DNA from: a virus
Taxonomy: Duplodnaviria > Caudoviricetes
Strand: one strand, 5' to 3'
Length of the DNA stretch: 64,000 nt
Virus record (IMG/VR): IMGVR_UViG_2852743531_000003
Span: 76,993 to 140,992 of that record
Below are positions 3,967 through 62,459 of the stretch, piece by piece (positions within the stretch are counted from its first letter, which is position 1; every line of letters begins with the position of its first letter). A program made the position numbers and the translations under genes. Under the pieces are notes generated by a model. It worked only from the letters and a program-made list of their open reading frames with translations, did no database searches and was not told where the DNA came from.

Positions 3967-4941
3967 TCAGGACGTCACTGCGCTGCTTGGCGGCGTATTG
4001 ACCGCGGCGAGCGCCGCGGCCGCGAGCGCGGCCGTCACATCCTGTCCTGTGGGCAGCACCGAGGTCGGGCTAACCTGATTCGCCGCGATCTGCGCGATCT
4101 CGTTCTGGTAGCCGGTCGTCGTGGCAGCCACATCCGGGTTGATCGCGTTGATGAACGCGTTCTGCGTGTAGGGATTGGCGTTCACGATGCTGATCGAGCT
4201 GAGCACCTGCTGTGCGAACGCATCCACCCCCAGACTCCATTGCGCGATGCCCGAGTAGGTAATGTCGACTGTCAGGTTCTCGAGCGCACTGGCCTGATCG
4301 CGCGAGCCCAGGATGTCACCGGTGCCCGTCGGGTACATGTTGGTCACGAGCCACGACTTCACCACCCGCGTATGTGTCGGGTCAGGCTCCATGAACAGCA
4401 TCGTCGCCGAGTACATGTCAGCGAGCATGTCCGGTGGCGGACTCATGCCCGTGATGCCAGAGAGCGTGGCAATATTCGCAAACTTGGTGTCAGGGTCCAT
4501 CATGAGATTCGTGATCCACCCCTGATGAAACATCGACACCGGCATGCCGTATTTCTCGTTCCAGCTGAACTGAGGCTGCGAACGCTCGCGTTTGACATCC
4601 GTGAAGTCCTGCTGCATGTTCCCGCCGCCACCGACTGGCGTCTCCGCCATCTCCACCGTCAGGTGTGCGTTCAGGCCTGTGATACGCAGCGCGTGCAGCT
4701 CCACGAGCGCGCGCAGGGTGCCGATCCATACGTCCGGATTTGGCAGGTAGCTGAAACCCAGCGGAGCCTCGACCAGAATGCAGATCAGGTTGCGCCGGAC
4801 GTACTGCTGGTTGCTGACCCACTGAACGTAGTTCGGAACGAACCCCATCTGACCACCAAAGCGGGGATCAAGCATCGGGTTGTTATGACCTTGCGCGAAA
4901 CCGAACTGGTTTTGCAGAATCGCATTTGCGACGCGCCCCAT
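3967..4941 (-). CDS. tail tube-like major virion protein (phiKZ gp30 position)
   Basis: 324 aa directly downstream of sheath; GGQMG...WVSNQQYVRRN, EKYGMP, EPDPTH...WLVTNMYP segments match recalled phiKZ-like tube proteins. Confidence 0.75.
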   Translation of the reverse strand: MGRVANAILQNQFGFAQGHNNPMLDPRFGGQMGFVPNYVQWVSNQQYVRRNLICILVEAPLGFSYLPNPDVWIGTLRALVELHALRITGLNAHLTVEMAETPVGGGGNMQQDFTDVKRERSQPQFSWNEKYGMPVSMFHQGWITNLMMDPDTKFANIATLSGITGMSPPPDMLADMYSATMLFMEPDPTHTRVVKSWLVTNMYPTGTGDILGSRDQASALENLTVDITYSGIAQWSLGVDAFAQQVLSSISIVNANPYTQNAFINAINPDVAATTTGYQNEIAQIAANQVSPTSVLPTGQDVTAALAAAALAAVNTPPSSAVTS

Positions 4942-5013
4942 GACCGTATCTCCCTTTGCTCAGCATTGCTTACCGTTGCAGACGCTTCCCCAACGGGGCG
5001 AACTGGCTTGCGC

Positions 5014-7119
5014 TCAGGTCGTCGCTGTCGATGACTGGTCCAGCCGCACGGACTGGATCACGATGGTGGCAACCGTCTTCATGCCGGCGGCCGCGATCTG
5101 CAGGATCGAGGTCCAGCTGTAGTTGCGCTGCGCGTCCATGCCGGTGATCGTCGTGGTCGGCGTGATCGTGAAGCGGTTATCGAAGATGTTCGCCACGCGC
5201 GTCGTGATGAAGTTGTTCACGTTCTTGATGAGCTGCGCGTTGGTCATCGATGACACTCCGCTGAACTGACGGCGTGCGAGGTCGCCGATCTTCTCGAGCG
5301 TGCAGATGGCACTGACCGTGAAGAAGCTGTTGAGCACCGACGTGTCGTTGTCGTAGATCGTCTTGAGCGCAGGGAAATACGCCTGACGGCGCGCGCAGGC
5401 TTCGACTCCCACCATGCCGTTGGCCCAGTCCTGGTTGCGCGCGGTCGCACTCCAGAAGGTCACGTTGATGTTCGAGAAGAGGTTGATCTGCGAGCCCGGC
5501 TGCATGTCGAAGGCGTAGCCAGACTTCCACTTGCCGCTGCTCGCGCCCATGTAGGCCGCAGCCTTCGACGCAAGCTCGATGGTGAGTGGCAGCTGGCCGG
5601 TGTAGAGCGAGCCCGTGAGCGAGCCCGAGCCTGGCACCACCATGCCCCGTGCGCAGGGCGTGCCAAAGTAGTCCGACTCGGGGTACTGCTGCAGGAACGC
5701 CTTGAGCGCCACCGCCATGGACGATTCCTCGGAGGCAGTAAGCGGCGGCGAGAGCGTCGAATAGGTCGACAGCGTGATGAACGTGTCCGGCCGTTGCGAG
5801 ATGAACTGCGCCAGCGCCTTCTTGGTGTCGATCGGAAAACCCGAGTCCCAGAAGTGGGAATACGGATACATCACCATTTCCTGGATCGGATCAGCCGCGT
5901 CCGCAAAGCGCGCGGCATCCTCTGCCACGAGCGCCGCAAAGCTTGCATCGTCCATCGTGCCGTCGCTGCCGCCCGATGCCCACAGCGTGCTCGCCTGCCC
6001 CAGATACGCCGCATCCGGGTCCGACGTGTTGAGCTGGAAAGTCGAATAGGGCGCTCCCTTCGACGAGACGCCGCTGACGAAGTTGAAAAGCCACTGCTCG
6101 CCATGCGCACCGGTAAAGTCAGAAAACGAATTGATGGCCGCGGCCTCCGCCGCGTAGAACATCCCGATGAGCGTGGCGAGATTGTCGTCGTAGACGTGCA
6201 GGCTGCCGAACAGGCCGTAGACGTCAGCCGTGCCCGCCGGATTGTTCAGGTCCTGCCAGGCATTCAGGAAGATGTCCTGGATGGATATCTGCGCATCAAG
6301 GGCCGTATCGATCGCGTTGGGCTTGAACGTGACGTCGAGATACGTCGAGCCGTTGATCATGCGCGTGAGCGTACCCGTGCTCGAAGCCGAGGCGCGTGTA
6401 ACGCACGAGACACGAAACGGATAGACGAGATCGTCCTCGATGAAGTTCGAATTGGCCGGCGTTGAGGAATTCACCGTCGGCGCCCACAGGCGCAAGCCAT
6501 CGTTGTTGCCATACGCGCCAAAGCTTGGCACCAGCAGGTCCATCACCGGATAGCGCTGCGACGTATCTGAACCCGAGGATTGATCACCAGCCAGAATCTG
6601 TGCCTCGCCATAGTCGCTTGACCCGTCGGGGCTGTACGTCACCGTCGACACAACCCATTTCGCGATATAGCCCGCAAGCGTTGAGCCCGCGCCCGTAACC
6701 GGAACAGGCGCACCGCTCTCACCCGTCATGAATGAGCCGTCGGTATTGCGCTGGTACTGCTGGATTTGTGCCGGGAGCACATCCAGGCACAGACGCAACG
6801 ACGCGGGCGGATTCGCGTCTCCCGGTTGCAGGCGCCTCACCATGATCGCGTTGCCCTGGGCATTTACTGCATTGGCAAGCACTGTCGCGTGATTGGCCCA
6901 CGGTTTGCGCAGATCGAATGAATCGGCGCCATACAGGTTGGTCAGATCGACACCCGACACGACTTCCTCGGTTGTCGGGCCCATCTGCGTGTACAGATAG
7001 ATGTAAGGGAGGTGCTGGGGAATCTGCTCCGGGGCCGGGGTCACCTGCTGCGTACTGAGATCATCGGTACGCTGGAAGATGGTCATCGGAGCGCCATTGA
7101 CAATCATGGCTGTTGTCAT
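5014..7119 (-). CDS. contractile tail sheath protein (phiKZ gp29-like)
   Basis: ~700 aa from ATG 7119 with AGGA RBS; PQHLP...YGADSFD, GGSDG, WDSGFP, YFGTP, FPALKTIYDNDTSVLNS segments. Confidence 0.8.
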   Translation of the reverse strand: MTTAMIVNGAPMTIFQRTDDLSTQQVTPAPEQIPQHLPYIYLYTQMGPTTEEVVSGVDLTNLYGADSFDLRKPWANHATVLANAVNAQGNAIMVRRLQPGDANPPASLRLCLDVLPAQIQQYQRNTDGSFMTGESGAPVPVTGAGSTLAGYIAKWVVSTVTYSPDGSSDYGEAQILAGDQSSGSDTSQRYPVMDLLVPSFGAYGNNDGLRLWAPTVNSSTPANSNFIEDDLVYPFRVSCVTRASASSTGTLTRMINGSTYLDVTFKPNAIDTALDAQISIQDIFLNAWQDLNNPAGTADVYGLFGSLHVYDDNLATLIGMFYAAEAAAINSFSDFTGAHGEQWLFNFVSGVSSKGAPYSTFQLNTSDPDAAYLGQASTLWASGGSDGTMDDASFAALVAEDAARFADAADPIQEMVMYPYSHFWDSGFPIDTKKALAQFISQRPDTFITLSTYSTLSPPLTASEESSMAVALKAFLQQYPESDYFGTPCARGMVVPGSGSLTGSLYTGQLPLTIELASKAAAYMGASSGKWKSGYAFDMQPGSQINLFSNINVTFWSATARNQDWANGMVGVEACARRQAYFPALKTIYDNDTSVLNSFFTVSAICTLEKIGDLARRQFSGVSSMTNAQLIKNVNNFITTRVANIFDNRFTITPTTTITGMDAQRNYSWTSILQIAAAGMKTVATIVIQSVRLDQSSTATT

Positions 7120-7266
7120 GGTTGTGATCCTGAAATGAAATGCTATGGCTGGAAAGCGATGCGGCGCATCATATAAATTTGTGCGCTTCGTAATCCTCAG
7201 TAATTCACGCGATACGGCATCGCGGGTCACAGGGCGGGCCGTTTCTTCTGGACGAGGGCGTGGAGA

Positions 7267-8223
7267 ATGAAACGCTATGCGACGGCGTACGACACCACGC
7301 AGTGCAGTGGCTACGTACTGGACAGGCTGGACTCAGGACTGAAGGCGGCGCTGCTCGCGGGAGCGCTTGCACCTTCCAACGAGGCGGCCACGATACTGGA
7401 GGTGCACGGAGGACAGCCGCTCGCGGACGCGGTGCCCGAGTTTGCCCACCCGTGGCTGATTACGCACGAAAAAGAACGCGAACAAACACATGGACACGAT
7501 TGGCGCGGGACCATCGTGTTCGATGCCCGCCCGTTCGGCGCCTTCGACAGGATCAAGGGGCAATTTCTTGTCCGCAACGAGATCGAATACGGCCTGCAAC
7601 GGCGCCGCGCGCAACTGAACGACATCTGGGTCAATGACGATCCGGCGCTGCTGCGTGATGTCTCTCCGGTGGCGATGAGCCTCTTCGCAGGCTGGATCAG
7701 CGAGAACCTGGCAAGACGCTTCGCGCTCGATCCCCGCGAGCAGTTGAACATGGCCATCCTCTCGGCCATTCACTACCTTTCGCTCTTTTCCGACGATGGG
7801 AACATCGATACGCCCCAACGCATAAAGATGGCGATGCAGGTGTCGCGTGGCTTGCGCTGTCCGGCTGAGGAAGTCATGACGCTGCTCGAGAAGCGGCAGC
7901 ACGAGGGGCCAGGGATCATCGGCCTGTGCGGGGCTGCCGCAGATGCCACCGGTAGCGTGAGACTGCGTGAGCTCAACCCCGGCATCCTGATCAGCATCGT
8001 CAAGGGCACGTGGTTCGGCATCAACGCCGCCGAAATGCTGGCCGTGGCGCTTGAACATCCGCCCACCTGGCTGGCCCTCCTTGCCGCCGCGCACATCGAA
8101 CGGACCTACCGGAATTCAGGCCTCGCGCGCATGGTCGAGCGTCAGGCCCACAAGGAACCCAACCAGCTCTTCCTGCGCGCCGTGCTCAATCTTGCACAAC
8201 TGGCCGATCGCGGTTCGCGCTAA
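7267..8223 (+). CDS. virion structural protein (phiKZ gp28 position)
   Basis: divergent from sheath; GGAG RBS; VALEHPPTW segment; first gene of the operon ending in terminase. Confidence 0.65.
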   Translation: MKRYATAYDTTQCSGYVLDRLDSGLKAALLAGALAPSNEAATILEVHGGQPLADAVPEFAHPWLITHEKEREQTHGHDWRGTIVFDARPFGAFDRIKGQFLVRNEIEYGLQRRRAQLNDIWVNDDPALLRDVSPVAMSLFAGWISENLARRFALDPREQLNMAILSAIHYLSLFSDDGNIDTPQRIKMAMQVSRGLRCPAEEVMTLLEKRQHEGPGIIGLCGAAADATGSVRLRELNPGILISIVKGTWFGINAAEMLAVALEHPPTWLALLAAAHIERTYRNSGLARMVERQAHKEPNQLFLRAVLNLAQLADRGSR

Positions 8224-8290
8224 GCGCCGCCCCCTTGCCCAGGCTTCGTTTCTGTCGCCCTTCGCGACGCTCTTTGTCCGGGATACGAGC

Positions 8291-10933
8291 ATGTACGACT
8301 ATCTCGTCGATAACGCTTTGCGCAATGTCTGGTGTGCTCCCACCCAGGACCGGCAGGCCATACTCCAGCCTGCGCGGCTCACCCCCGATGGCGGGGTCGT
8401 CAATAGCGTGCAGATCGACTGGTCCCAGTACCGCCTGCCGGTCAGCAACACCGCGTATCACATCTACCAGATCGGACAGATCAGTCCATTCCTGCTGGGC
8501 CTGCTGTCGTGGGCCCGAACATGGACGCCGTTTGCTGTCGCCATGAACCGGCTGAACCTGATCGTGGATCTGTACGTCAACTCCGGCATCCAGCTCGCAC
8601 GCTTCCAGTCGTACTTCATGATCACCCGTGACAACAATCTGGTCGTCGCGGTGCAGTTGCAGTCCACCATCGACATCAACCTGGATCACGAACCCCTGTG
8701 CCTGCGGCTCTACAGCAATGCCTTTTTCCAGAGCCCACGCGCTACCGCCGGCGCGACACAAAACTACATCCAGACCGGCGGCATCGTCCCCAGGATCAAG
8801 ACCGATATCCTGCCCGTCCAGAATACCGTGACGGCACTCAGGGCGCAGCCAGGCACCGTGTACTGCTTCGTGAATGGGTTCAAGGTCGACACGATCAACG
8901 TGGTTACCGCGCAGCCTGGTGACGTGATCGAGTACGTCTATGACAGCTCGGTCTATCGCGTCGCGGATTTCGCACTCACCGGATTGCCGGTGTTCAACAG
9001 TACGCTCGACAGCAAGTACAAGTACCTGCTTCACTACAACGGACGCGGACGCCACACCATCGACTACGAGGACGACATCGACGTGTGGGTCATCTACACG
9101 CTGCCCAGTGGGCTCACACAGGGCGTCTTCTACCACCACAACGAGACAGATGCGATCCGCAACGTCACGCACCGCGACTACGCGTTGCCCACGGCCTATG
9201 TCGCAGGCTATCTGTCTGCACGCGGAAACTGGAACTCGGAGTCGAACGTCACGATCCGCCTCCACATTCGCAAGGCCGGACTCGAGCGGCCACTCATCCA
9301 TGAGAACAACCGCATCTTCGAGCTCTACAAGCTCGATGACGACCAGATTGTCAGCGCGATGGCGGGCGTCGATGCGACGCTCGAAAACTGGCAGGCAGCC
9401 ACACTGGAAGCCGCGCCCTATACCCGGATCATGCGCGCATGCAGTGACAGAAGCGGTAACAGCATGTTTGATCGCCGGACGGTCGAGGAAGCGTACGGGT
9501 ACAACGCGACGAGCCGGCTGGTTGGCATGAGCCCTCTCATTCCGGTACTGGAATCGGGCCAGCTGATCGTCAGCCTGCCCTACAACCTGCAGAGCAACGT
9601 CACGGCGTGGGAATACAACGAAGACGGCACCCTGCTTGGGTATTACCCGCATGCAAGCGGTGGCGTGTATGTCTGCCAGAACAGCGACTGTGCACTCGTC
9701 GAGGTGATCTACGGTGCGGCCAGCCAGCTGCCCGACGACACCTACGGACAGGCGTCGCAGGTGATCGACCCGCGGCTCGACTACCGGATGTACACGTGCG
9801 ACATCGCGTCGGTGACTGGCAAGCCGCTCCTGAACTGGACCGATGTGACCGGCAGCAGCCAGTATGCGATCCAGGACGGCATTCTTACCTGGCTAATCGA
9901 CACCACGAAGACTTACACTTGCGTGAGAAGCAACCGGACGATGCTCGCGTACACGCTCTACATCCAGCCGCAGGAAGGCATCCTGCCGATCACGATCCAG
10001 CAGCAGGGCATTCTTGACTACGTGCTCCAGCTCTTCTCGATGCAGATCCCGATGGGCCAGCTCGACGTGTTCGTGAACGGCCGCTCGATGATCCAGGACC
10101 TGGACTATGTGATGCGGTTTCCGGTGATCATGATTAACAACGTCTCGGCCCTCTCCTTTCCGCAAGACAGACAGCAACAGATCACACTACGCTGGACGGG
10201 CTTCTGCAATAGTGATCTGTCAATTCCGCTGCATCGCGATGTCGGCTGGGTGCAGTATGGGCTTCTGTCGAACAATAACCGCTACAACATCCGCGACGAC
10301 GATGTCACGCGCATCGTGGTCGGTGGCGGTGTATTTCCGAAGTCGAACCTGAAGTTCGCCGAGGATGACGCCAACATTCTCTCGCCGCTGCCGATCAATG
10401 GCCTGCCCTATCAGGTCCAGAAGGTGATCGTGCCGATGCTCGGCGTCACGAACGAGGACACCTGGACCTACTTCGACCGCGCCCTTGCCGTCGACCGCGC
10501 GGTCGAGGACTACATGACCCTCTACTATCCACTGCCTGCACCTGGCGTAGCAAGTGGCCCCGATGTCATCGAAGCACTCTATCCGCTGTTCAGCCCCTTC
10601 TGCTGCAAGATCATCTACGACCTCGTGCTCGGCATCATCGACGAGACGCCCCTCCAGTCGTTCTACAACGACGACTTCGTGCGCGAGGTCTGTCAACCCT
10701 ATGAGTACCTGCTGGCGTTCGACCCGACCCAGCCAGCCAATACACAGGATCCGCGGTTCGTGACGATCCGGCCGCACAACCTCACGGTGACCATTGCGCT
10801 CGAGATCTATGCGTACAACTTCGTGAATAACGCGATCCGGATCTACCTTGGAAACCAGGTGCTGCTGAACAACTACGTCTCCATCGCCGACCTCACGGGT
10901 AGCAACGCGATCACCAGCGCAACCAGCAGTTGA
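8291..10933 (+). CDS. large virion structural protein (phiKZ gp27 position)
   Basis: 880 aa from ATG 8291; begins YLVDNALRNVWCAP.QD.Q; VTHRDY segment; synteny. Confidence 0.7.
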   Translation: MYDYLVDNALRNVWCAPTQDRQAILQPARLTPDGGVVNSVQIDWSQYRLPVSNTAYHIYQIGQISPFLLGLLSWARTWTPFAVAMNRLNLIVDLYVNSGIQLARFQSYFMITRDNNLVVAVQLQSTIDINLDHEPLCLRLYSNAFFQSPRATAGATQNYIQTGGIVPRIKTDILPVQNTVTALRAQPGTVYCFVNGFKVDTINVVTAQPGDVIEYVYDSSVYRVADFALTGLPVFNSTLDSKYKYLLHYNGRGRHTIDYEDDIDVWVIYTLPSGLTQGVFYHHNETDAIRNVTHRDYALPTAYVAGYLSARGNWNSESNVTIRLHIRKAGLERPLIHENNRIFELYKLDDDQIVSAMAGVDATLENWQAATLEAAPYTRIMRACSDRSGNSMFDRRTVEEAYGYNATSRLVGMSPLIPVLESGQLIVSLPYNLQSNVTAWEYNEDGTLLGYYPHASGGVYVCQNSDCALVEVIYGAASQLPDDTYGQASQVIDPRLDYRMYTCDIASVTGKPLLNWTDVTGSSQYAIQDGILTWLIDTTKTYTCVRSNRTMLAYTLYIQPQEGILPITIQQQGILDYVLQLFSMQIPMGQLDVFVNGRSMIQDLDYVMRFPVIMINNVSALSFPQDRQQQITLRWTGFCNSDLSIPLHRDVGWVQYGLLSNNNRYNIRDDDVTRIVVGGGVFPKSNLKFAEDDANILSPLPINGLPYQVQKVIVPMLGVTNEDTWTYFDRALAVDRAVEDYMTLYYPLPAPGVASGPDVIEALYPLFSPFCCKIIYDLVLGIIDETPLQSFYNDDFVREVCQPYEYLLAFDPTQPANTQDPRFVTIRPHNLTVTIALEIYAYNFVNNAIRIYLGNQVLLNNYVSIADLTGSNAITSATSS

Positions 10934-10951
10934 AGCACAGCGGAGATTTTC

Positions 10952-12661: not shown

Positions 12662-12728
12662 CGGACACAGAGCCGGCATGCGGCCCCCTCCCCTGCGAGG
12701 GAGGCAAGCCTCAAGCGGAGGCGACCAG

Positions 12729-47389: not shown

Positions 47390-47392
47390 GTG

Positions 47393-50692: not shown

Positions 50693-50950
50693 ATGAATGT
50701 AAGGCAATCCGACCCACGACTGACCCATTTCATCGTCGTGGACGGCGGCGAGTGGGGAAAGGGCACGACACTTCTGGCGGCAGCGAGTGCACGTCCGTAC
50801 TCGAAGGACAGACCCATAGGTCGTGCGGCACAGGCCTGGCGCGTTTGCGCGGACGCGCACATTACCGACGAAGGCCAGATCGCGTATCCCACGGGTCAGG
50901 CACGTCCCCTTCGTGTCGATGTCAGGACTGGAGAACCGGTCCCGGAATAA
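50693..50950 (+). CDS. small hypothetical protein
   Basis: AGGA RBS before ATG (MNVRQ) in ORF 50636..50950. Confidence 0.45.
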   Translation: MNVRQSDPRLTHFIVVDGGEWGKGTTLLAAASARPYSKDRPIGRAAQAWRVCADAHITDEGQIAYPTGQARPLRVDVRTGEPVPE

Positions 50951-51060
50951 GGAAGTCTGGCAGCCTCAGCCCCCTCTGCCAGGAGGGGGCGAGATGGACT
51001 AACCGCTCCTGGCGTTTGACCTGCAAGGCCCGTACTTCTTTTTTGGAAAAGGGAGTCCAG

Positions 51061-51456: not shown

Positions 51457-51488
51457 GGTGCAGATCCTTACGAAAAACGGTTGAGACC

Positions 51489-51503
51489 TATATCACTCAT
51501 CTG
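51489..51503 (+). promoter_or_regulatory. TATATCAC-N6-G promoter motif upstream of RNAP beta
   Basis: exact motif in the divergent intergenic region. Confidence 0.7.
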
Positions 51504-51573
51504 GAAGCCATTCAGGTCACAGGCCTGATGGCCTTGCCTGCTGGCTGGTGAATGCGTTTTTTGAGAGGTACCC

Positions 51574-53874: not shown

Positions 53875-55859
53875 GACGCATTTCTGCCAGAACGCTGCTG
53901 GACTACAGCACAGAGAGCCTCTGGGGCATGCTTCATGGCACGTTCCGGCTGATGTTCGACGATGGAGAACTGCAGGTCGATCACCGTTCGACGCTGTACA
54001 GCAGCTACGGATGGGATCTGCTCCGGGAATATCCAGCTGCGCCGGTCCTCATGAGACATCACGTCACGCACGTCCTGGATGGTCGCCGGCTGGACACCGG
54101 TACACATCTGAAACTGCTGGCCAATGTAGCGTGGGACGTGCTTGATGCCTATGAGTCAGATCCTGTTGTCACGGTCGACCGGATCGGACGACGCACGTAT
54201 GAGATCGTCAACACGATGTACAACGATCTCTCGTTGCGGCTCGAGGAGTACATCGTTTCCTTCGATATCTCGGACTTCGTCAAGGTAGTCGATCATCCTC
54301 CCGTTGTGGAAGCGAAAAGGCCGGTGTACGCAGTGCCGCTGGGTGAAGTCACTGACCGCATGCTCGAAGACGCATATTCTCAGGTAGGCACAATCATCCG
54401 CGAGGACCCCGCGCTCGATCGCAATCCGATCGTGATCGCCGCGCGCTCGGGAACCGTGCGCTTCGAACAACTGCTCGAGTGCGTCGCATTTCGCGGAAAG
54501 ATTACGGATATTGACTCGAACCAGTTCGAGCTGCCGGTACTGCCGAGCTTTACCGAAGGCATCCGCAGTTTCCGGGATTCGCTCGTCGAGTCGAGATCGG
54601 CCGCCAAGTCCCTGTTCTTCGCCGCGGCACCACTGCAGGATACCGAGTATTTTTCGCGGCGCCTGCAGCTCATGTCCATGAACATCCAGCGGTTGCACCA
54701 TGGCGATTGCGGTACCGATCAGTATTCGCACTGGATGGTGCGCACGGACGATATCGCGCTGCTGGCCGGCATGAACTATCTCGATGAAGCATCCGGTGAG
54801 CTCAGGACCATCCGCAAGCGCGATACGGATCTCGTCGGCAGGACCATCCGGTTGCGCACGGTCCTGCATTGCGCTCATCCGGATCCGGCGGGTGTGTGTT
54901 CAGCCTGTTTCGGAGAACTATCCCGATCAGTACCGAAAGACACCAACATCGGACACCTGTGCTGCATGCTGCTCACCGAGAAGTCATCGCAGTCGGTGCT
55001 CGCAGTCAAGCACCTGGATAGAACTGCATCGATCGAACCAGCGGTGTTGCATCAGGCGGACCGGCAGTTCCTGAGACTGGGCGCCGATGAAAATTCGTAC
55101 CTGCTGGCCGCGCGACTGAAAGGCAGGCCGGTCAGGCTCATTATCCCGGGAGAGGCAATACCCAATATCAACGACATATTTGAAGTCGAAAACGTCGAGA
55201 ACCTGAACATCGCGCGCTTCTCGCAGGTCCCGTGTATCAGCATTGTGACGGGGGAAGTCGGCGTTGCCACGGGTCCAGAAATTCCAACCCGCGCGGGGCA
55301 GCGCGTCGCGTCTATCACGCACGAGCTCATGCGCCACATCCGCAAGGTCGGCCTGACGAGCGACGAGAGAGGCAACCACGTCATCGACATGGAGGGATGG
55401 AACAGTTCGTGGCCCATTCTCGCGTTGCCACTGAAACACTTCAGCATGGCGGATCATTCGAAGGATATTGCCAAGCTGCTGGAATCGAGCGTGGGCATGA
55501 TGCAGAAGCGGGACAAGAGGACGTTGCCCGATGATGCGCTCGTCGAACTTTTCGATCTCGTCAACAGCAAACTCGACGTAAATCTGACGGTCCTTGCCAT
55601 GGTGCTGCGGCAGGCCATGATCGTCTCGGCCGAGACGCTTGACTACAGTCTGCCCAAGCCGTGGACGACCGCGGGTCTTGGTGTCATGTCGCTATCAATG
55701 AAACACCGCTCGCTCTCGGCTGCGATGGCCTTCGAACATCACCGCGAAGTGCTGACCGATCCAGTGAGTTTCATTCACACGAGGCGCATGGATCATCCGT
55801 TCGACGTGTTCCTCTCTCCTCGCGAGATTCTTCAGCCCGAGACCTGCGTCTCCGGTTGA
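53871..55859 (+). CDS. non-virion RNA polymerase beta' C-terminal subunit (gp74-like)
   Basis: ATGA coupling; ESRSAAKSL...EYFSRRL (bridge-helix-like), DCGT, C.HPD..GVC..CFG Zn site, SQSVL.VKH. Confidence 0.88.
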   Translation: MRRISARTLLDYSTESLWGMLHGTFRLMFDDGELQVDHRSTLYSSYGWDLLREYPAAPVLMRHHVTHVLDGRRLDTGTHLKLLANVAWDVLDAYESDPVVTVDRIGRRTYEIVNTMYNDLSLRLEEYIVSFDISDFVKVVDHPPVVEAKRPVYAVPLGEVTDRMLEDAYSQVGTIIREDPALDRNPIVIAARSGTVRFEQLLECVAFRGKITDIDSNQFELPVLPSFTEGIRSFRDSLVESRSAAKSLFFAAAPLQDTEYFSRRLQLMSMNIQRLHHGDCGTDQYSHWMVRTDDIALLAGMNYLDEASGELRTIRKRDTDLVGRTIRLRTVLHCAHPDPAGVCSACFGELSRSVPKDTNIGHLCCMLLTEKSSQSVLAVKHLDRTASIEPAVLHQADRQFLRLGADENSYLLAARLKGRPVRLIIPGEAIPNINDIFEVENVENLNIARFSQVPCISIVTGEVGVATGPEIPTRAGQRVASITHELMRHIRKVGLTSDERGNHVIDMEGWNSSWPILALPLKHFSMADHSKDIAKLLESSVGMMQKRDKRTLPDDALVELFDLVNSKLDVNLTVLAMVLRQAMIVSAETLDYSLPKPWTTAGLGVMSLSMKHRSLSAAMAFEHHREVLTDPVSFIHTRRMDHPFDVFLSPREILQPETCVSG

Positions 55860-55932
55860 AAGAACCTGCGTTGCGGGGCGTCAGCTGGAAGTCCGATGCC
55901 CCCATATCACCATTCTCTTTACCAGACCGGTC

Positions 55933-57462
55933 ATGGCGGAATTACGTTTATCAGTGCGGTCGCATCATTTCGTGGTGGACCGGATGTCTCCCCAAGGACG
56001 CGAAGTCGTCGAAAAGTTTGCGAGGCAGTTTATCCAGTACGGCCGCCGACGCCGGGGCCGCCGGTATATCAGCGGGCGGCTGCATGATTACTTCGCCTGG
56101 CGGGAAGACCATCGCGAGTGCCGGTTCCACATCAATGTGCTCGAGCGTTTCGAGCAGCACCTCGTTGGGTGTGGAATCGGTCATGAATCGCTCATCGAGA
56201 GGATCGAGGAGCCAGTACCTGTTGCGCGGGAGATTAATGTGTCCATCCGCGATAGATGGACGTTGCGGGATTATCAGGAGCCCGCGGTCGATTACATCAC
56301 CGCGGATGGCGAGCCGCGATCGCGCTTCATCGGACTACAGACCGGCAAGGGCAAGGGCATTGTGTCCCTCTTCGGTATAAGCCGCCTACGGTTGAGAACG
56401 CTCATCGAGGTGCTGCCGAAGTACATCGAAAAGTGGGTGCTGGAGATCCGCGAGATCTGCGACGTTGAGCTTGAAGATGTCATGGTGGTGCGCGGTGTGC
56501 GGCATCTGAAAGCGCTGCTGGCGATGGCGGCTTCCGGTACCCTGCATAGCCCGATTGTAATCATCAGCAGCAAGACACTGCAGCGATGGATCAACGTCTA
56601 TGAGCGTCACGGCGAAACCACGCTGCAGATGGGCTACGCCTGTCTGCCAGATCAGCTCATGGGATGGCTCGGCGCCGGCCTACGTCTCATCGATGAAGTG
56701 CACGAGCATTTTTCCATGCAGTTCCGCTTCGACCTCTATACGCACTGCCAACGATCACTTTCGCTGTCGGCGACGCTGCTACACAGCGATGGATTTCTCA
56801 ACAGGATGTACGAGATCGCGTACCCGACTCCGACGCGCTACAAGAGCCCGGCCTATGACCGGTACGTGAGGGTGACCGCCCTTTTCTACCGCTTCAGGCA
56901 TCCCGAACGTATCCGCTACCGCGATCCACTCACCAAAAACTACTCGCACCAGCGCTTCGAGTTAAGCGTCATGAAGGATCCCGAACTGCTTCACCGCTAT
57001 CTGGATCTCATCGATGGGATCGTCCGGATGAGGTATCTGGAGGGCCACATTCCAGGCGAAAGACTCGCTGTCTTTTTTACCACGGTCGCCATGTGTACGC
57101 GGGCAACCGAGTTCTTCCGCGGACGCCATCCCCATCTCGATGTGCGGCGCTACATCGAAGAAGACCCTTTCGAGAATGCGATCACGCCGGATATCCGGAG
57201 CACCACCCTCCTCTCGGGTGGCACGGCAATCGACATCCCGAATCTGACCACGGTAATCCTGGCTATTGCGCTCAGCAGCGTGCAAGCCAACCTGCAGGTA
57301 CTCGGGCGCCTGCGCAGGCTCACCAGTGGCAGGGTCCCGGAGTTCATCTACCTGAACTGCATGGACATCATTCAGCACCGTGTCTATCACGAGCGCAAGG
57401 TCGAACTGTTCCGGTATCGGGCACTTCACCATGACACGGAGTTCATCCACTCCCCCATTTGA
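55933..57462 (+). CDS. SF2 DExH helicase (gp75-like)
   Basis: LRDYQ, QTGKGK, DEVH, LSAT, Q.LGRLR. Confidence 0.9.
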   Translation: MAELRLSVRSHHFVVDRMSPQGREVVEKFARQFIQYGRRRRGRRYISGRLHDYFAWREDHRECRFHINVLERFEQHLVGCGIGHESLIERIEEPVPVAREINVSIRDRWTLRDYQEPAVDYITADGEPRSRFIGLQTGKGKGIVSLFGISRLRLRTLIEVLPKYIEKWVLEIREICDVELEDVMVVRGVRHLKALLAMAASGTLHSPIVIISSKTLQRWINVYERHGETTLQMGYACLPDQLMGWLGAGLRLIDEVHEHFSMQFRFDLYTHCQRSLSLSATLLHSDGFLNRMYEIAYPTPTRYKSPAYDRYVRVTALFYRFRHPERIRYRDPLTKNYSHQRFELSVMKDPELLHRYLDLIDGIVRMRYLEGHIPGERLAVFFTTVAMCTRATEFFRGRHPHLDVRRYIEEDPFENAITPDIRSTTLLSGGTAIDIPNLTTVILAIALSSVQANLQVLGRLRRLTSGRVPEFIYLNCMDIIQHRVYHERKVELFRYRALHHDTEFIHSPI

Positions 57463-57607
57463 AGCTTACGATCAGACGCCACAGGGTCAACCCGTTTATT
57501 TCGTAGTCCTAATTTAAATGAAAACAAACTCCGACAGATATCACCACTGCGGAGCGCCATGAAGGCGCCCGCTTCACACCAGCACATCCACAAGGAGGAA
57601 GGTCATC

Positions 57608-58174
57608 ATGTTGACACTGGCTTATAGTGCGGACCGGGTCCGCGAGGCAGAAAATCGGGTGCAGGATTTCTGCCTCGACATCAGGGAGCGAATCCGGGCG
57701 CACGGCTATGTTTGCCTTGACGCGTCGAACACGATCGCCGATCGTACCGACCAGTTTTTCTTCACGGCCGGACTGACGGAATCGCAACTGCCCGAGCTGA
57801 TCGTCTCGGGCAATATCAGCCGTCGCTCTGCCCTGCTGCTCATTGAACGGGTGGTCCGGGAGCTTTCGAAGACGAAGGGGCAGACGCCGCTTGGCATCCG
57901 AGACGATCTGATCCCTGGCCGGGTTGAGTTGCGCCTGATAGCCACGCCGGATACGGCGACGCCGGGGGAACACGCCGGCATGAGCCAGTTGCTTGATGAG
58001 CTGTATCCAGGCCGTGCCTGCGTGGTGCAGATCATCTGGGCCGATGCAGACAGGCAGCTACCGGATTCAACGGGAGGTCAGGCGACCCAATGCAGACAGG
58101 TCGTGTTTCCCCAGCTGCCGTTCGTGACCGGTACCGTTTGTGACGCACCCGCATCGGAAGAAGGAGTATGTTGA
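57608..58174 (+). CDS. DUF4262-like protein
   Basis: F.FT.GL....LPELIVSG; VQIIW.D....LP. Confidence 0.55.
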   Translation: MLTLAYSADRVREAENRVQDFCLDIRERIRAHGYVCLDASNTIADRTDQFFFTAGLTESQLPELIVSGNISRRSALLLIERVVRELSKTKGQTPLGIRDDLIPGRVELRLIATPDTATPGEHAGMSQLLDELYPGRACVVQIIWADADRQLPDSTGGQATQCRQVVFPQLPFVTGTVCDAPASEEGVC

Positions 58175-58782
58175 TGTCCGTGTACGAAACCCTGTGCCGC
58201 GATCAGGGACAGAATCGGGCCGAATTTGATCTGCTGGAAGCACAACTCGTCGAGCTGCTGGAAAAATCCGGTGAGGGCGGCCGGATACCGGAAGGCATCC
58301 GGGACTTGCGTCACGTGGCCACGCTCAGGCCGGGTGACACCGAATCCCGGTGCGTGGCTGCGCAGCAGTGCGCGCGGGTAGTGTGGTGGCTCGCCCGAGC
58401 GTTCTGGACCGCGGAAGTCGCCTGCAGTTTGATCTATGGTATCGATCCTCCTGTCGACGCAGCAGACGACGCTGCGCCGGTCGAATGCCATGCGCTCGAC
58501 GGACGCTTGCTGACCGGCAATTCCGCCGAAGTGTACGACGCCTGGGTGCTGCTCCAGTCCCTGTTGGCCTGGGTGGATCGACAGGTCGAGCAGGCCGAAG
58601 CGACGCCGGAAACACCGGCTTGCGAAGTCAGCCCCGCGGAGTTCATTAACTGGTGTCAGGACGAAGGCATCGATACCAGTTACCTGCGGCTCATTCGTAC
58701 GTTGATCGGCGTAGGCAACGGCTCGCTTGTTGGACGTCTGCCGCTTGCTGATGTCCAGATCTTCAAACCGGGGAAGCAATGA
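58168..58782 (+). CDS. hypothetical protein
   Basis: AGGAG RBS; overlaps upstream gene; convergent with rep. Confidence 0.55.
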   Translation: MLMSVYETLCRDQGQNRAEFDLLEAQLVELLEKSGEGGRIPEGIRDLRHVATLRPGDTESRCVAAQQCARVVWWLARAFWTAEVACSLIYGIDPPVDAADDAAPVECHALDGRLLTGNSAEVYDAWVLLQSLLAWVDRQVEQAEATPETPACEVSPAEFINWCQDEGIDTSYLRLIRTLIGVGNGSLVGRLPLADVQIFKPGKQ

Positions 58783-60013
58783 CCCTGGTAGTTTCCAAGT
58801 GAGGCTGGAGAGATTCCAGCCTCACCCTCCCCCCTTCATTTTTTGGCCCTGCCTTGAGGTCCTTCCGGCCGGGCTTGAGCACATCCCAGATACCCGCGAT
58901 GTGAGCGCGTGTTGCCGGCGTCACTGGAACCCTGGGTTCGGTCCTGGCGAAGGACATTGCGACGGTTGCGAGTCCGACAGGCACGGCTTCTCGCAGCCGG
59001 CCGCCGGCGAGAGCAGTTGCAAAGCCTGCCTGCCAGTTCGTCGCCTGACGCTCGATTCCTTCCTCGTGGCTGTAGACCGAGAGGTGTTCGCCGGAAGCGT
59101 CGACGCTATAGCGCAGCTTTCGATCGACGTCCTCGAAGACCTTCCCGGCGCTCTGCTTCGCCACCGCCTGTGCCTCGACCGCGCGCTGCCTGCGGGCCTC
59201 GGCTTCGGCGCTGGCCTGGCTGCGTTGGCGCAACTGGTGCGAAAAATCGACAGGGTTGCGGAGCAGGGCGCCAAGGTAACAGATGGGTCGCTTGGCGGCC
59301 TTCAGATGTTGCCACGTAACTTCGACGACATCGGAAAGTCTCTTGCCTGCATCACGCGCTTGGCGCATGAGTTTGAAGATCAGGAAATCAGAAAAACCCA
59401 GGGACCGCAGGCGCTGGAGGTCCGCAGGCACTTGCCCCGGTTGTCTCTTTTGAAGAGAAGCAGGGTAAAGATCCTTATATATAGCACCGTGTGCCACAGT
59501 GGCACACGGACCATTTGCCTGGTCTGGGCCCTTGCCCTCGTCGGAGCCGCCCGCGTCTGCAGTGGCGGGGACAACCGGAGCCGGGCGTTCCTCCACGAGG
59601 CCGAGGAGTTCCGCGGCCTGCTGTGTCAGGTGCAGGTAGGCACGACCAAAGAGTCCCGCTTCGACATAGCGGTTTTGGGGGCGACGCTCGACCAGGCCAG
59701 CGGTTTCGAGATCATGGAGGGCTCGGTACAGTGTGCGCATGGATTGCAGGGCACGGCCGGTGAGGAGTTCACGCCGGGCAAAAATCGAGGCAAAAGGGCG
59801 ATCGGCGTCAACGGTGCGGGCGAGTGCCGAGAGCAGGGCGCGTGCGCGTTGTGAGATGCCGTCGATGTGATTGGCGCGAAAGGCAGCGCGAAAGATCACC
59901 CACGGGAGATTCGTGGTGTCGCACTGGAATGCAGAAAGGGCGGCCTGATCGGAATGGGCTGGAGAAGGGTGTGTTGATCCCTCGCCAGCAACGAAATGTT
60001 GCGCGATAGACAT
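58763..60013 (-). CDS. putative plasmid replication initiator (N-terminal winged HTH)
   Basis: ARRELL....QSMRTLYRALHDLE..GLVER HTH; second helical domain (PICYL.ALL); directly downstream of parAB; internal AT-rich patch near 59440-59485. Confidence 0.7.
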   Translation of the reverse strand: MSIAQHFVAGEGSTHPSPAHSDQAALSAFQCDTTNLPWVIFRAAFRANHIDGISQRARALLSALARTVDADRPFASIFARRELLTGRALQSMRTLYRALHDLETAGLVERRPQNRYVEAGLFGRAYLHLTQQAAELLGLVEERPAPVVPATADAGGSDEGKGPDQANGPCATVAHGAIYKDLYPASLQKRQPGQVPADLQRLRSLGFSDFLIFKLMRQARDAGKRLSDVVEVTWQHLKAAKRPICYLGALLRNPVDFSHQLRQRSQASAEAEARRQRAVEAQAVAKQSAGKVFEDVDRKLRYSVDASGEHLSVYSHEEGIERQATNWQAGFATALAGGRLREAVPVGLATVAMSFARTEPRVPVTPATRAHIAGIWDVLKPGRKDLKAGPKNEGGRVRLESLQPHLETTRVIASPV

Positions 60014-60051
60014 GTCGAGCGTTCCATTTTTAGAAAATGGATTGAAAACGC

Positions 60052-60079
60052 TTGACTGGCTATCTCACTGCGCTACACT
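60052..60079 (+). promoter_or_regulatory. sigma70-like promoter antisense to rep leader
   Basis: TTGACT-16 bp-TACACT. Confidence 0.6.
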
Positions 60080-60084
60080 CCGAT

Positions 60085-60195
60085 CTTGTGAGTTGACCTT
60101 TCCAGTTTCCAGCTGGAGAGTGTAGTGAGCGAAGGTTTCCAGCCAAGCCCACTTACGCAAAAGCCCTCAGTTTCCAGCTGGGGGCTTTTGTCTTT
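60085..60195 (+). ncRNA. candidate counter-transcribed copy-control RNA (~110 nt)
   Basis: promoter upstream, terminator CAAAAGCCCTCAG/CTGGGGGCTTTTG+TCTTT at 60158-60195, three GTTTCCAGC copies, no ORF. Confidence 0.55.
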
Positions 60196-60264
60196 CTGGC
60201 AGTTATTTCACTGCGCTCTCCTCATCCGTACTACGGATCGCAATAAAATCAATCACTTAGCGTT

Positions 60265-61257
60265 TTAAGACTTCGCGGCGAGTAGTTCGAGGTGTTGCTT
60301 GATGGCCTCTTGAACAGCATCTGCTACGGCTTCCGACTGGAACTCGATGCGCATGATGTTTTTTGTCGTGCGAACGTCGCACCATGTGCTTTTCCCAGTC
60401 TTGACCTTGTACACCGCGGCAACCGCCTTGGCTGGCTTGGGCGTCTCGACGGCCTTAGCATATTTGACCGCCTGCGCCTGATCCAGCTCACGCTCGGAGA
60501 GGCGTCGCACCGCTTCCACAACCCGATCTGCGTTCCCGGTCTCTGCAATCGTTGCCAGCTCCGCTGCCGCGTTGGCACCCATGATTGCCTTGTTGGCGTC
60601 GAGGATGGCCCGTGCTTGCTCTGGCAGGCGGTTGAAGGAGAGAAGGGCGTTGATGTGCGAGCTGCTGATGCCGACGCGCTCACCAAGCTCCGCCTGACTC
60701 AGTTCGGGATGCTTTGCATGGATGCGCGTCAAGCCGATGTACTTCTCATAGTCGGTCAGGTCTGATTGCATCAGATTGGCCCAGAAGGCGCCGTCATCTG
60801 CTTCGTCACCCGTGGCATCGCCCAGTACACAGCGAATGGTCGAACGTCCTAGTTCTCGATAGGCGTCGACCCGGTGGTGACCCGACTGGATTTCATATCC
60901 GCCTTCGGCACGAGGCAGAATAACGACCAGTTGGATGAGCTTGTTGTGACGCAAGTTCTCCCGCAGTTCGATGAATTTCTCCGGTGGCATATAGCGCCGG
61001 CGGCCGACGACTTCATGTAGCTGGTCGAGCGGAATCTCGACACCGCTAGGTGCGCCGCTCTGCTTCTGTGCTCGGAGTTCGGCCAACTCTACGGACATTG
61101 CGTCGATTTCGGCTTGCTTTTCGCGCATCGCCGATTGGAACGCCAACGCCCCACCAGGGGCAGTTCTTGGACGAAAGGGATCACCAGCTGTCGAGTGGGA
61201 GGGCTCGGGGACCTCGATGTCCTTTGTTTTTTCACTGAGTCGTTGTGCTGCGCGCAT
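60265..61257 (-). CDS. parB: ParB partition protein
   Basis: YEIQSGHHR ParB motif; HTH SQAELGERVGISSSHI; TAATG coupling with parA. Confidence 0.9.
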   Translation of the reverse strand: MRAAQRLSEKTKDIEVPEPSHSTAGDPFRPRTAPGGALAFQSAMREKQAEIDAMSVELAELRAQKQSGAPSGVEIPLDQLHEVVGRRRYMPPEKFIELRENLRHNKLIQLVVILPRAEGGYEIQSGHHRVDAYRELGRSTIRCVLGDATGDEADDGAFWANLMQSDLTDYEKYIGLTRIHAKHPELSQAELGERVGISSSHINALLSFNRLPEQARAILDANKAIMGANAAAELATIAETGNADRVVEAVRRLSERELDQAQAVKYAKAVETPKPAKAVAAVYKVKTGKSTWCDVRTTKNIMRIEFQSEAVADAVQEAIKQHLELLAAKS

Positions 61258-62459
61258 TAGACCTCCATCTGGGAAGACGACCACGCTTGAACAAACTGTG
61301 AGTCGATGTGCCTGACCAACTGATCCATCGGATCCTTGAATCGCGTGTATGCGGCGACGCTGCCTTCGGGCTTCGTTAGGTCATAGACGGTAGAAAGCTG
61401 AGCAGATGCGCTCTTGGGGACGACCGACTCTGGGATTTCATACGGAAGAACGCGATCCCCGTACGCCTTTTGTAGCCAGCCCCGAACAACGCCGGAAAGA
61501 TCATCGTTCTTGGATTTCGTCAGGACGACATTCACAAAATCGAAGTTCTTCGTCTCGCGCATTGCCGGAACGTGGCGCGCCATTTCCGTGAAGAGGAACC
61601 AGAATTGCGTTGAACTCGCGAAATCGAGGCCCTCAGGCGGGCAGGGCATCAATAGTCCGTCAGCCGCCATCAGAGCATTGATGGTCAAATAACTCAGAGA
61701 GGGCGGGGTGTCGACGATAATGGCGTCGTATCTGTCCTTGATGTCGACCAGTCCTTGATTCAGGATGTTCCAGAACGCGAACTCGTGGTCGCTGGCCAGC
61801 TTGCCCGGAATATGAAACTCAGCGCTGAAGAGTCCAGATGACGCAGGGATCAAGTCTAAGTCTTGCCAGTAGGTTTCTTGAATTGCGTAGTCCAGCCCCG
61901 TCTCATCCCCATAGATCAGAGGCATTAGCGTCCTTTCTTCGCCGATTTCAGTCTCGGGGGAGAAGCCACAAAGTTGTGTTGCGGTACCTTGCGGATCACA
62001 GTCAATGACCAGAACTTTTCGGCCGCGCAAAGTGAGTCCCTGTGCAAGGGAGACGGCGGTTGTGGTCTTCGCTACACCACCCTTGAAGTTGGCGACGGTC
62101 ACAACCTTACCGGGCGCGTTTTGTGGTCGCGCAGGACGATTGCCAGCAGCGCGGATGTAACGTAACGTTTCGTCCAAGGTAAAGGTCTTGCTCTTGCCGT
62201 TTCCGACTGATGTGCCAGCGGGGAGGTCTCCCTTCGTGGTCAGGTACTGAAATCGCAGTTTCTCAAGTCCACAAAGGTTGGCGACCTGTGCGCTGGTGAA
62301 TGTGGGTGGGCGCTTGCGCGGGTATGGTTCAAGCATCCGGTCGCGAATTTGATTGAGAACCCCAGCCGCGCGCTCGGCCACGTCGGACAAGGTGTCCATG
62401 GATGCGGCAAAGTCCAGCGCAGGCGGCAGTTTGGTAGCGAGCAAAGTGCTTGCATTCAC
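61257..62459 (-). CDS. parA: type Ia ParA partition ATPase
   Basis: N-terminal HTH extension; NFKGGVAKTT; IDCDPQG; DTPP. Confidence 0.93.
   Translation of the reverse strand: MNASTLLATKLPPALDFAASMDTLSDVAERAAGVLNQIRDRMLEPYPRKRPPTFTSAQVANLCGLEKLRFQYLTTKGDLPAGTSVGNGKSKTFTLDETLRYIRAAGNRPARPQNAPGKVVTVANFKGGVAKTTTAVSLAQGLTLRGRKVLVIDCDPQGTATQLCGFSPETEIGEERTLMPLIYGDETGLDYAIQETYWQDLDLIPASSGLFSAEFHIPGKLASDHEFAFWNILNQGLVDIKDRYDAIIVDTPPSLSYLTINALMAADGLLMPCPPEGLDFASSTQFWFLFTEMARHVPAMRETKNFDFVNVVLTKSKNDDLSGVVRGWLQKAYGDRVLPYEIPESVVPKSASAQLSTVYDLTKPEGSVAAYTRFKDPMDQLVRHIDSQFVQAWSSSQMEV

Follow-up and report, generated by a model that had tools for sequence, protein, structure and literature searches.

Can a nucleus-forming jumbo phage be maintained in its host as a plasmid? 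To our knowledge, phages of this kind have been regarded as strictly lytic, and this is one reason why they are preferred for therapy. The question is raised by a 64,000-nucleotide stretch of viral DNA (hereafter the window), which comprises bases 76993-140992, that is the last 64 kb, of the 140,992-base IMG/VR record IMGVR_UViG_2852743531_000003, a record classed as 'provirus'. An earlier reading of this stretch (hereafter the original prediction) had noticed the core genes of a nucleus-forming phage (chimallivirus), including that of the nuclear shell protein chimallin, next to a plasmid-type parA-parB-rep cassette, and had proposed an episomal prophage of a Burkholderiaceae host. By following up this arrangement in related genomes, we found four independent elements in each of which a single contig carries virion genes as well as genes for plasmid replication and partition. 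We consider that the window probably represents the right-hand part of an approximately 285-kb chimallivirus, which resides in a Paraburkholderia-type host as a low-copy phage-plasmid. The host genus of the window is suggested by its 75-90% identity to a contig of genome G405 (G405:C5, hereafter C5) and by plasmid matches, while the plasmid state, the silencing of the lytic genes, inducibility and nucleus formation are properties that we infer for this element. The IMG identifier of the record begins with 2, which probably denotes an isolate genome, as it does in the case of Paraburkholderia sp. BCC1886 described below.

The parA-parB-rep cassette and its site in the phage genome

The three genes of the cassette are encoded on the minus strand and are transcribed in the order parA, parB and rep, from position 62459 down to 58763 (Table 1). 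As originally predicted, it follows the helicase gene at a distance of about 1.3 kb, with ParA and ParB recognized by profile and Rep by its plasmid homologues. For the 6.6 kb around the cassette, 124 plasmid records matched at 60-80% nucleotide identity (65-72% among the best matches); these matches span parA-parB-rep units where annotated, and some lie at position 1 of their record. Rep was 49-59% identical in amino acids (aa) to 'Replication protein O' in the best-listed of 118 matching Burkholderiaceae plasmid records, one of which is numbered from its Rep homologue (position 1), and it matched none of 50,697 phage records. ParA, in which an N-terminal extension of 117 residues precedes the ATPase domain, found its best phage matches at about 30% identity in N15, PY54 and phiKO2, all known phage-plasmids. 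Judged by homology, the cassette represents a genuine plasmid module of the Burkholderiaceae.

Between rep and parB, the 14-mer CAGTTTCCAGCTGG occurs in two exact copies, and five matches were observed when up to two mismatches were allowed, a count that was reached in none of 100 shuffles. The same 14-mer was found in or next to the rep-parB gap of all four phage-borne cassettes, and its exact form was absent from the single phage-free cassette relative compared (L009). It is a candidate cis-acting site, which may be a centromere, an operator or an iteron. Shared perfect 12-nt palindromes were also considered as such a site and rejected, none being common to all four cassettes. Beside the operon stands an open reading frame (ORF) for a RelB-like antitoxin, for which C5 has a stretch of 79% identity in the corresponding position. 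It runs off the record end, and any toxin partner would fall in the DNA trimmed by IMG/VR.

The Rep scan of species-representative genomes yielded two Paraburkholderia loci, of which one is in a genome with chimallin on the same contig and the second is on a 406-kb contig of a genome without chimallin. The contig of Paraburkholderia sp. BCC1886 (hereafter C11) comprises 286,074 bases, the first and last 125 of which are identical, which reads as the signature of a circular path. Homologues of 86 of the 136 record ORFs were found in C11 at 25-78% aa identity and mostly in the same order, which includes the helicase, the small ORFs, rep, parB and parA. Beyond parA, C11 continues with a DNA ligase-like protein, an RNA polymerase (RNAP) subunit, an endolysin, a second polymerase part, internal head proteins, a head protease, and thymidylate synthase and kinase; on its other side lie the genes for the major head protein (197418-199754; phrog_3231, 1e-181) and a DnaB-like helicase, as well as a large cluster of tail-fibre genes. 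A further carrier, G405, was found by chimallin profile in 213 genomes of the genus. Its contig C5 (284,264 bases, one of at least five contigs, from the same GTDB genus as the C11 host) is collinear with positions 908-139698 of the record at 75-90% nucleotide identity, and it carries an open major capsid gene (258283-260508) with internal head proteins and protease. Two parts of C11 are missing from C5, namely its second tail-fibre cluster and its genes for nucleotide metabolism. The ORFs of these relatives were obtained with a simple caller based on longest ORF and G+C at third codon positions (GC3), by which starts and some short ORFs are unreliable. As a side observation, the DnaB-like helicase of C11 (200308-202388) is split into ORFs of 441 aa and 147 aa (profile positions 1-384 and 385-507) that lie about 300 bases apart, a split that could stem from an intron, from a frameshift or from what is left of an intein; C5 has this helicase as a single 540-aa ORF.

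With the C11 capsid protein as query, 13 related IMG/VR records were obtained. The metagenomic genome G572 (278,988 bases, direct terminal repeats, CheckV completeness 100%) bears the cassette in the same place, and combines a C11-like backbone, with a helicase 47-48% identical to that of the window, with ParAB of the window type. No ParA-type gene was found in the complete relatives G569 (284,983 bases) and G570 (323,678 bases); in G569, the site after the helicase holds small ORFs only, after which synteny with C11 resumes. The helicase itself, which forms the conserved border of the site, has homologues in all four related IMG/VR records searched. Another record, G571 (143,740 bases), was considered on account of its length as the missing half of the replicon and rejected, as it is a different, C11-like element that extends over the half already represented by the record and stops 2.8 kb past the helicase.

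Since the cassette is flanked by phage genes on either side in C11 and C5, it is an integral and conserved part of the phage genome and does not belong to a neighbouring host replicon. By these comparisons, it is an accessory module of one variable site, which was encountered in four or more diverged genomes and whose parts are exchanged between them. Compared with the window, ParA is 98% identical in C5, 90% in G572 and 46% in C11, and ParB is 91%, 84% and 43% identical, respectively; Rep is 57% identical in C5 and 61% in C11, within a range of about 57-65% among all cassettes. Such unequal divergence of the cassette genes implies separate histories, and suggests that the partition and initiator parts were swapped independently, as under plasmid incompatibility. 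The four full-length genomes keep to 279-286 kb despite about 70 kb of differing content, a constancy that fits a headful packaging limit.

The junction between helicase and rep was evaluated in public sequencing data. Two public runs contain the last 10 kb of the record in full (no RNA data set was listed among the runs), and in the Logan re-assembly of each run (contigs totalling 8.4 Mb per run) one 102,264-base contig covers window positions 44001-64000 with zero differences. This contig extends 55,430 bases beyond the record end, which shows that the molecule goes on and that the record was cut off there by trimming. The re-assembly thus bridges helicase and rep independently of the original assembler, and the same arrangement recurs in three diverged elements; the junction is real and old, and not chimeric. 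Both runs are possibly the source of the DNA, so that it is the comparisons, and not the re-assembly alone, that give independent support.

The lack of an integrase at the junction, which the original prediction had pointed out, holds for the whole 141-kb record, as six-frame searches found neither a tyrosine integrase nor a serine recombinase. Likewise, no tyrosine integrase was found in C11, G572, G569 or G570. In C5, three tandem tyrosine recombinase genes (57743-60125) are located inside a 3.7-kb stretch without equivalent in the record; they resemble a mobile element that has been inserted, presumably of the kind named 'recombinase in trio', and not a phage integrase. The capsid gene in an IMG/VR record of 171,853 bases is 100% identical to the one in the 286-kb C11, so the 'provirus' label reflects trimming and not integration.

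Phage core genes, selection and bacterial cargo

The 58 long ORFs of the window were scanned against Pfam and PHROGs, the Pfam scan taking ORFs of at least 70 aa. All of the phage genes named in the original prediction were recovered by these matches as open and full-length ORFs, at or close to the positions predicted for them (Table 1). Chimallin was recognized by sequence, by profile and by predicted structure; its predicted identity stood, while its predicted start at 36468 was given up for a GTG at 36438. The protein matched the chimallins of PhiPA3, Goslar and 201phi2-1 in the PDB (4e-14), and 797 relatives were found at E values of 0.001 or below in a library of 1.84 billion representatives. 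Using an alignment of the window chimallin and 63 of the 150 relatives listed, an AlphaFold2 model with a predicted local distance difference test score (pLDDT) of 82 and a predicted template modelling score (pTM) of 0.81 was obtained. The top nine Foldseek matches of this model in the PDB were all chimallins (E 3e-31 to 2e-27, target-normalised TM 0.77-0.86), and the tenth had an E value of 0.045. Among cultured phages, the closest chimallin is that of Burkholderia phage FLC9, with 30% identity.

Membership in the chimalliviruses was also supported by gene content and order, in agreement with the fold. Homologues were found for 49 of the 210 ORFs of Ralstonia phage RSL2 in the record, for 69 in C5 and for 73 in C11 (67 in both C5 and C11), and every RSL2 homologue in the record-equivalent part of C5 is also present in the record. 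The same phage continues in the 77 kb to the left of the window, with genes for two large RNAP subunits (551 and 1475 aa), a tail protein of 2233 aa that includes a transglycosylase domain, four paralogous tail fibres, a baseplate protein, SbcC, RNase H and a UvsX-like recombinase. In total, six RNAP-subunit ORFs were found in the record (phrog_3233, 2986, 3148, 2987, 3295 and 3015), to which C11 adds one subunit (phrog_2962) and a 'polymerase' ORF (phrog_2943); we take these, after the example of phiKZ, to be divided between a virion and a non-virion enzyme. For the intact capsid and virion RNAP genes that had been expected of a functional phage, the record provides the virion-RNAP-type subunits, while capsid, protease and internal head proteins were found only in the full-length relatives; all of these genes are intact. 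The G+C content is about 0.60 across the window, with a dip to 0.475 at 18-20 kb. The GC-rich core had been read as fitting long residence, but a G+C-rich chimallivirus is no exception in itself: the family has cultured members on Ralstonia and Burkholderia, and RSL2 has 52% G+C. No tRNA was found in the window.

Table 1. Features located in the 64,000-nucleotide window (window positions)
Feature	Position	Strand	Evidence or remark
Tail tube protein	3967-4941	-	PF23806 5e-110; phrog_3185
Tail sheath	5014-7230	-	phrog_3242 3e-201; PF20961 phiKZ gp29PR
phiKZ gp28-like vertex-binding protein	7267-8223	+	PF25614 2e-65
DUF7193 protein	8051-10933	+	PF23823 2.5e-258
Virion structural protein	10952-12661	+	phrog_3430 1.5e-164
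Terminase large subunit	12678-14975	+	phrog_2 1.2e-49
T6SS (type VI secretion system) VgrG	15641-18109	+	Phage_GPD 2.6e-51, T6SS_Vgr 1.3e-30, DUF2345 2.8e-40; TIGR01646 196.6 bits (cut-off 121.8)
Accessory island: VgrG, then 450-aa and 175-aa ORFs (47% G+C)	15641-19982 (region 15641-21136)	+	Between terminase and next conserved gene
PhuZ tubulin	25518-26537	+	phrog_4733 3e-77; weak Pfam Tubulin and TubZ_C_2 matches
SH3DP protein	30989-31396	+	PF20287 1e-31; precedes its polymerase partner
Divergent family-B DNA polymerase (PolB)	32355-34556	+	PF20286 2.5e-228
Chimallin (phage nuclear shell protein)	36438-38516	+	PF25677 73 bits (cut-off 27); phrog_4795 'nuclear shell protein' 2e-68
RNAP beta-prime fragment	38689-40188	+	phrog_2987 1e-135; PF00623; NADFDGD motif at 39940-39960
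SbcD-like nuclease	42701-43936	+	phrog_100 8e-52
Two RNAP beta-type subunits	51574-53874, 53775-55859	+	phrog_3295 2.5e-205; phrog_3015 9e-178; PF00562
DNA helicase	55933-57462	+	phrog_16 1e-32; conserved border of variable site with cassette
DUF4262 protein, between helicase and rep	57608-58174	+	PF14081 2e-11
ORF of no assigned function, between helicase and rep	58168-58782	+	phrog_17488 listed for this pair of ORFs
Rep, putative plasmid replication initiator, 416 aa	58763-60013	-	Last gene of operon
Repeat CAGTTTCCAGCTGG, two exact copies, between rep and parB	60103-60181	+	Copies at 60103 and 60168
ParB	60265-61284	-	phrog_4715 (ParB-like) 3.5e-16
ParA, Walker-type partition ATPase, 400 aa	61257-62459	-	AAA_31 3e-38 from residue 118
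RelB-like antitoxin ORF	63659-64000	+	NF048017 3e-9, 37 bits (cut-off 50); runs off record end

To evaluate selection on the shared genes, the ratio of nonsynonymous to synonymous substitution rates (dN/dS) was calculated between the record and C5. From 81 best-hit gene pairs, 11 with an alignment coverage below 80% and two with saturated dS were dropped, and the remaining 68 pairs (dS mostly 0.5-1.0) had a median dN/dS of 0.116. Low values were found for the tube (0.007), the sheath (0.069), the terminase (0.074), the 1475-aa RNAP subunit (0.088) and PhuZ (0.159), as well as for ParA (0.026) and ParB (0.073), and the value for chimallin was 0.383. Two pairs with high values (0.73 and 2.0) are short ORFs of the crude caller and maybe not genes. 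The shared genes are under purifying selection, and because the ratios are low and the RSL2 gene set is retained, a decaying remnant does not fit. Chimallin deserves separate mention: between the window and C5 (156916-158925) it has 58% aa identity and a dN/dS of 0.38, while the surrounding genes have 80-99% identity and mostly less than 0.2, so that, by this comparison, the shell protein is evolving unusually fast between two otherwise close elements.

Bacterial cargo, as originally predicted, is present in the window as VgrG with the adjoining low-G+C stretch, and a block of dehydratase, oxidoreductase and transporter genes stands just to the left of it. VgrG has the composition that marks its family, namely a gp27/gp5-like Phage_GPD core with T6SS_Vgr and DUF2345 extension. 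The accessory island that it heads is absent from the corresponding position in both C11 and C5. For the 450-aa ORF, only lysozyme- or VgrG3-C-like leads were found in the ESM Atlas, all with scores below 0.9. The 450-aa and 175-aa ORFs are possibly a cell-wall-degrading effector and its immunity protein, which would make this stretch a phage-borne spike-effector-immunity island. The re-assembled contig breaks within VgrG, at about 17167, as expected at a sequence repeated elsewhere in that genome. The block to the left (record 71635-76136, 63% G+C) encodes an IlvD/Edd-family dehydratase, a flavin adenine dinucleotide (FAD)-dependent oxidoreductase and a major facilitator superfamily (MFS) transporter, and is located between a virion structural gene and the syntenic equivalent of the RSL2 head-protease gene, where nothing comparable was found in C5 or C11.

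Much more cargo was found in C5, the closest of the full-length relatives, in which positions 1-49 kb and 266-284 kb are bacterial, and about 215 kb of chimallivirus genes lie on the same contig. The bacterial part includes genes for TssJ, G, F, A, M, PAAR, Tle3/Tli3, VgrG, TssC, B, K, an OmpA-domain protein, ClpV and TssE, which looks like a complete T6SS cluster, Tle3/Tli3 being an effector-immunity pair. It also includes several operons for transport and catabolism together with their regulators, with ATP-binding cassette (ABC) and MFS transporters, porins and dehydrogenases, the regulators being of the LysR, IclR and DeoR families. Phd, AbiJ and H-NS-like genes are found near the C5 cassette, and RelE/antitoxin and MazF genes in C11. 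A T6SS sheath gene was found in none of four related IMG/VR records, and the T6SS cluster has so far been found only in C5. The record starts exactly at the end of the T6SS region of C5 (C5 49.8 kb), which probably explains the IMG/VR trimming point. Apart from this cargo, three DNA methyltransferase-like genes were observed in the left half of the record (10361-11581, 19507-20979 and 50124-51944), and these may protect resident DNA from host restriction.

Probable residence as a plasmid and the alternatives to it

In a resident phage-plasmid, the parA-parB-rep cassette would serve as the replicon, as modules of this kind do in the megaplasmids and chromids of Burkholderiaceae. Rep would bring the host replisome to an origin close by, ParB would attach to a centromere, for which the repeated CAGTTTCCAGCTGG is a candidate, ParA would separate the sister copies, and the RelB-like antitoxin gene by the operon would add post-segregational stability. 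After induction, the lytic programme, which is complete and kept by selection, comprising PolB, the helicases, both RNAPs, chimallin, PhuZ, terminase, capsid and contractile tail, would be run, and the accessory bacterial genes would be carried along as on plasmids. During lytic growth, the shell of nucleus-forming phages excludes the host replisome. Because the initiator would use this very replisome, the module would be sensible only outside the lytic cycle. The toxin-antitoxin and H-NS-like genes and the metabolic and T6SS cargo also point to a non-lytic state.

A number of observations weigh against residence as a plasmid. Within the cassette, the best NCBIfam rows of ParA are plasmid partitioning RepA and SopA, both below their cut-offs; ParB stays slightly under the Pfam cut-offs (ParB_N 24.4 bits against 26.3, and HTH_ParB 20 bits); Rep matched no family in Pfam, PHROG or NCBIfam and thus belongs to no curated family; and the origin and centromere are candidates only. 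The cassette appears dispensable for the phage as such, because the complete relatives G569 and G570 are without a ParA-type gene. No repressor, anti-repressor or lysogeny switch was found, the six-frame search of the record with the helix-turn-helix profile HTH_3 having matched only ParB. The 141-kb record is 53% complete according to CheckV, contains no capsid gene and stops short of the left flank of this element. Contig depths in the two re-assembled runs were 114.8 and 57.6, values that come without a chromosomal baseline for copy number or physical state. Circular assembly and terminal repeats are also what headful-packaged virion DNA gives, and leave a plasmid and a carrier state unseparated. 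The lineage is rare as well: chimallin was carried by two of 213 genomes of the genus and by one of 396 scored genomes in an even sample of the family, in which five further genomes had candidates that were unscorable. Among 72,556 plasmid records of PLSDB, none matched chimallin, and chimallin scans of collections of genome contigs and viral contigs, from which the records of the window itself may be excluded, found no relative. Finally, chimalliviruses without plasmid genes are already known in isolate assemblies, according to the available parts of two reports (10.1101/2024.12.31.630880; PMC12768965).

These last reports bear directly on the possibility that the element is an obligately lytic phage caught in an ongoing infection of part of the culture, with parAB-rep prolonging persistence or having some other role. 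In the parts available to us, they describe Seoulvirus, Goslarvirus and 'Bapsvirus' genomes by the hundreds in isolate assemblies, coexisting with their hosts (10.1101/2024.12.31.630880; PMC12768965), and both the failure to find a lysogeny switch in the record and the close cassette-free relatives agree with such an infection. We nevertheless regard it as quite unlikely. The persistent phages that were screened have, as far as the accessible text goes, neither ParA nor initiators (10.1101/2024.12.31.630880), whereas here four diverged genomes retain the operon at one and the same site, with dN/dS of only 0.026 for ParA and 0.073 for ParB. Moreover, an initiator of the type that uses the host replisome, toxin-antitoxin genes, H-NS, metabolic operons and a T6SS have no evident lytic use, and C5 is a separate 284-kb contig among at least five, with ParA-type matches on four other contigs.

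The genome could also be that of a domesticated, phage-derived megaplasmid which no longer makes infectious virions and retains phage genes for defence, compartmentation of DNA or particle-mediated killing. The roughly 70 kb of purely bacterial cargo in C5, its lack of the second tail-fibre cluster and nucleotide-metabolism genes of C11, the three-recombinase element inserted in it, and the IMG/VR 'provirus' class with host-like flanks would all suit such a fate. Yet nearly all of the conserved gene set is retained (C5 has 69 RSL2 homologues, C11 has 73), and the comparable genes, including capsid-associated, tail, terminase, virion-RNAP, nucleus and spindle genes, are open with low dN/dS at a dS close to saturation; when so many components of a single machine are under selection, selection for virions is the simplest explanation. 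The steady genome size of 279-286 kb and the completeness of the close metagenomic relative G572, with its terminal repeats, argue in the same direction, and make domestication an unlikely account. That the arrangement is a mis-joined contig, or a prophage integrated beside a megaplasmid or chromid origin, might be suspected from the 'provirus' label, from the position of the cassette 1.5 kb from the record end, and from the closest DNA matches, which are megaplasmid and chromid origins. Such an origin is highly improbable, since the re-assembly spans the junction without a difference and runs on for 55 kb, the same junction occurs in three other diverged assemblies, phage genes continue past parA in C11 and C5, trimming explains the label, and there is no integrase.

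Known systems and meaning for the family

The cultured lytic Chimalliviridae RSL2 and RSF1 (Ralstonia) and FLC9, FLC6, FLC8 and SURPRISE13 (Burkholderia) have, like the elements described here, chimallin, PhuZ, split virion and non-virion RNAPs, divergent PolB and phiKZ-type tail and head genes, and RSL2 shares with the window the gene order shell, RNAP, SbcD, RNAP, RNAP and helicase. The chimallins of these cultured Burkholderiaceae phages are only 26-30% identical to that of the window, and after the helicase RSL2 has small hypothetical genes only, where the window has parA-parB-rep. Unlike the cultured chimalliviruses, the elements found here sit in bacterial genome assemblies and carry bacterial cargo. 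The megaplasmid and chromid replicons of Burkholderia, Caballeronia and Paraburkholderia have the same three genes in the same order, but are without chimallin.

With the phage-plasmids P1, N15, PY54, phiKO2 and pBtic235, the elements share a tailed-phage genome, plasmid partition and replication genes and the lack of an integrase. A circular jumbo prophage maintained as a plasmid is described in the available part of the report on pBtic235 of Bacillus thuringiensis (PMC9700832). However, neither the classical phage-plasmids nor pBtic235 are nucleus-forming or have multisubunit RNAPs of their own, those matched by ParA are 46-60 kb in size, and the replicon module here is, unlike theirs, of the Burkholderiaceae megaplasmid and chromid type. 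As far as these partly available sources allow, a jumbo plasmid prophage is thus known (pBtic235), and what is new would be the plasmid lifestyle in the chimallivirus family.

The persistent virulent phages also have chimallin-encoding jumbo genomes that appear as contigs of bacterial isolate assemblies. Those described in the accessible text come from Enterobacteriaceae and have a G+C content of 0.42, while a full operon, toxin-antitoxin genes and cargo are found here. Their screening with 38 replication and 9 partition profiles gave, in that text, lone ParB-like matches and no ParA or initiator (10.1101/2024.12.31.630880). The definition of a persistent virulent phage given by Dougherty et al., as worded there, calls for a genome without plasmid or lysogeny genes (10.1101/2024.12.31.630880), whereas ParA, ParB and Rep are present in our elements. 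No description of a chimallin-encoding phage-plasmid was found among the papers listed in the literature searched, which left aside subscription journals and bioRxiv supplements, and the accessible passages of a 2025 review mention no temperate nucleus-forming member. The preprint on Burkholderia phage Matilda concerns, in its available part, an unrelated jumbo group.

The wider proposition is that a nucleus-forming clade is temperate without integration, its members living as megaplasmids of about 285 kb with swappable parAB-rep and cargo up to a T6SS, and still being packaged in phiKZ-like capsids; to this we give an even chance. The chimalliviruses of isolate assemblies have been explained by persistent infection, with the mechanism left unexplained in the parts of the reports available (10.1101/2024.12.31.630880; PMC12768965), and a lineage with a plasmid replicon would provide a concrete mechanism for persistence. 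It would extend the phage-plasmids to the largest and most cell-like phages, and it raises the question of how a genome that normally needs a virion-delivered RNAP and a protein shell is silenced and then started from within. By the gene content of C5, an apparently complete T6SS can be part of a virus genome; if the proposition is true, weapon systems and catabolic operons could pass between cells inside a virion.

Every infection of the family is thought to be started by a virion-delivered RNAP and an early vesicle. If the elements are indeed resident plasmids, the lytic cycle could be launched from naked resident DNA without virion RNAP or early vesicle, and some switch read by the host RNAP must then exist. 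As at least one carrier, Paraburkholderia sp. BCC1886, is a named isolate, direct testing of the idea may be possible.

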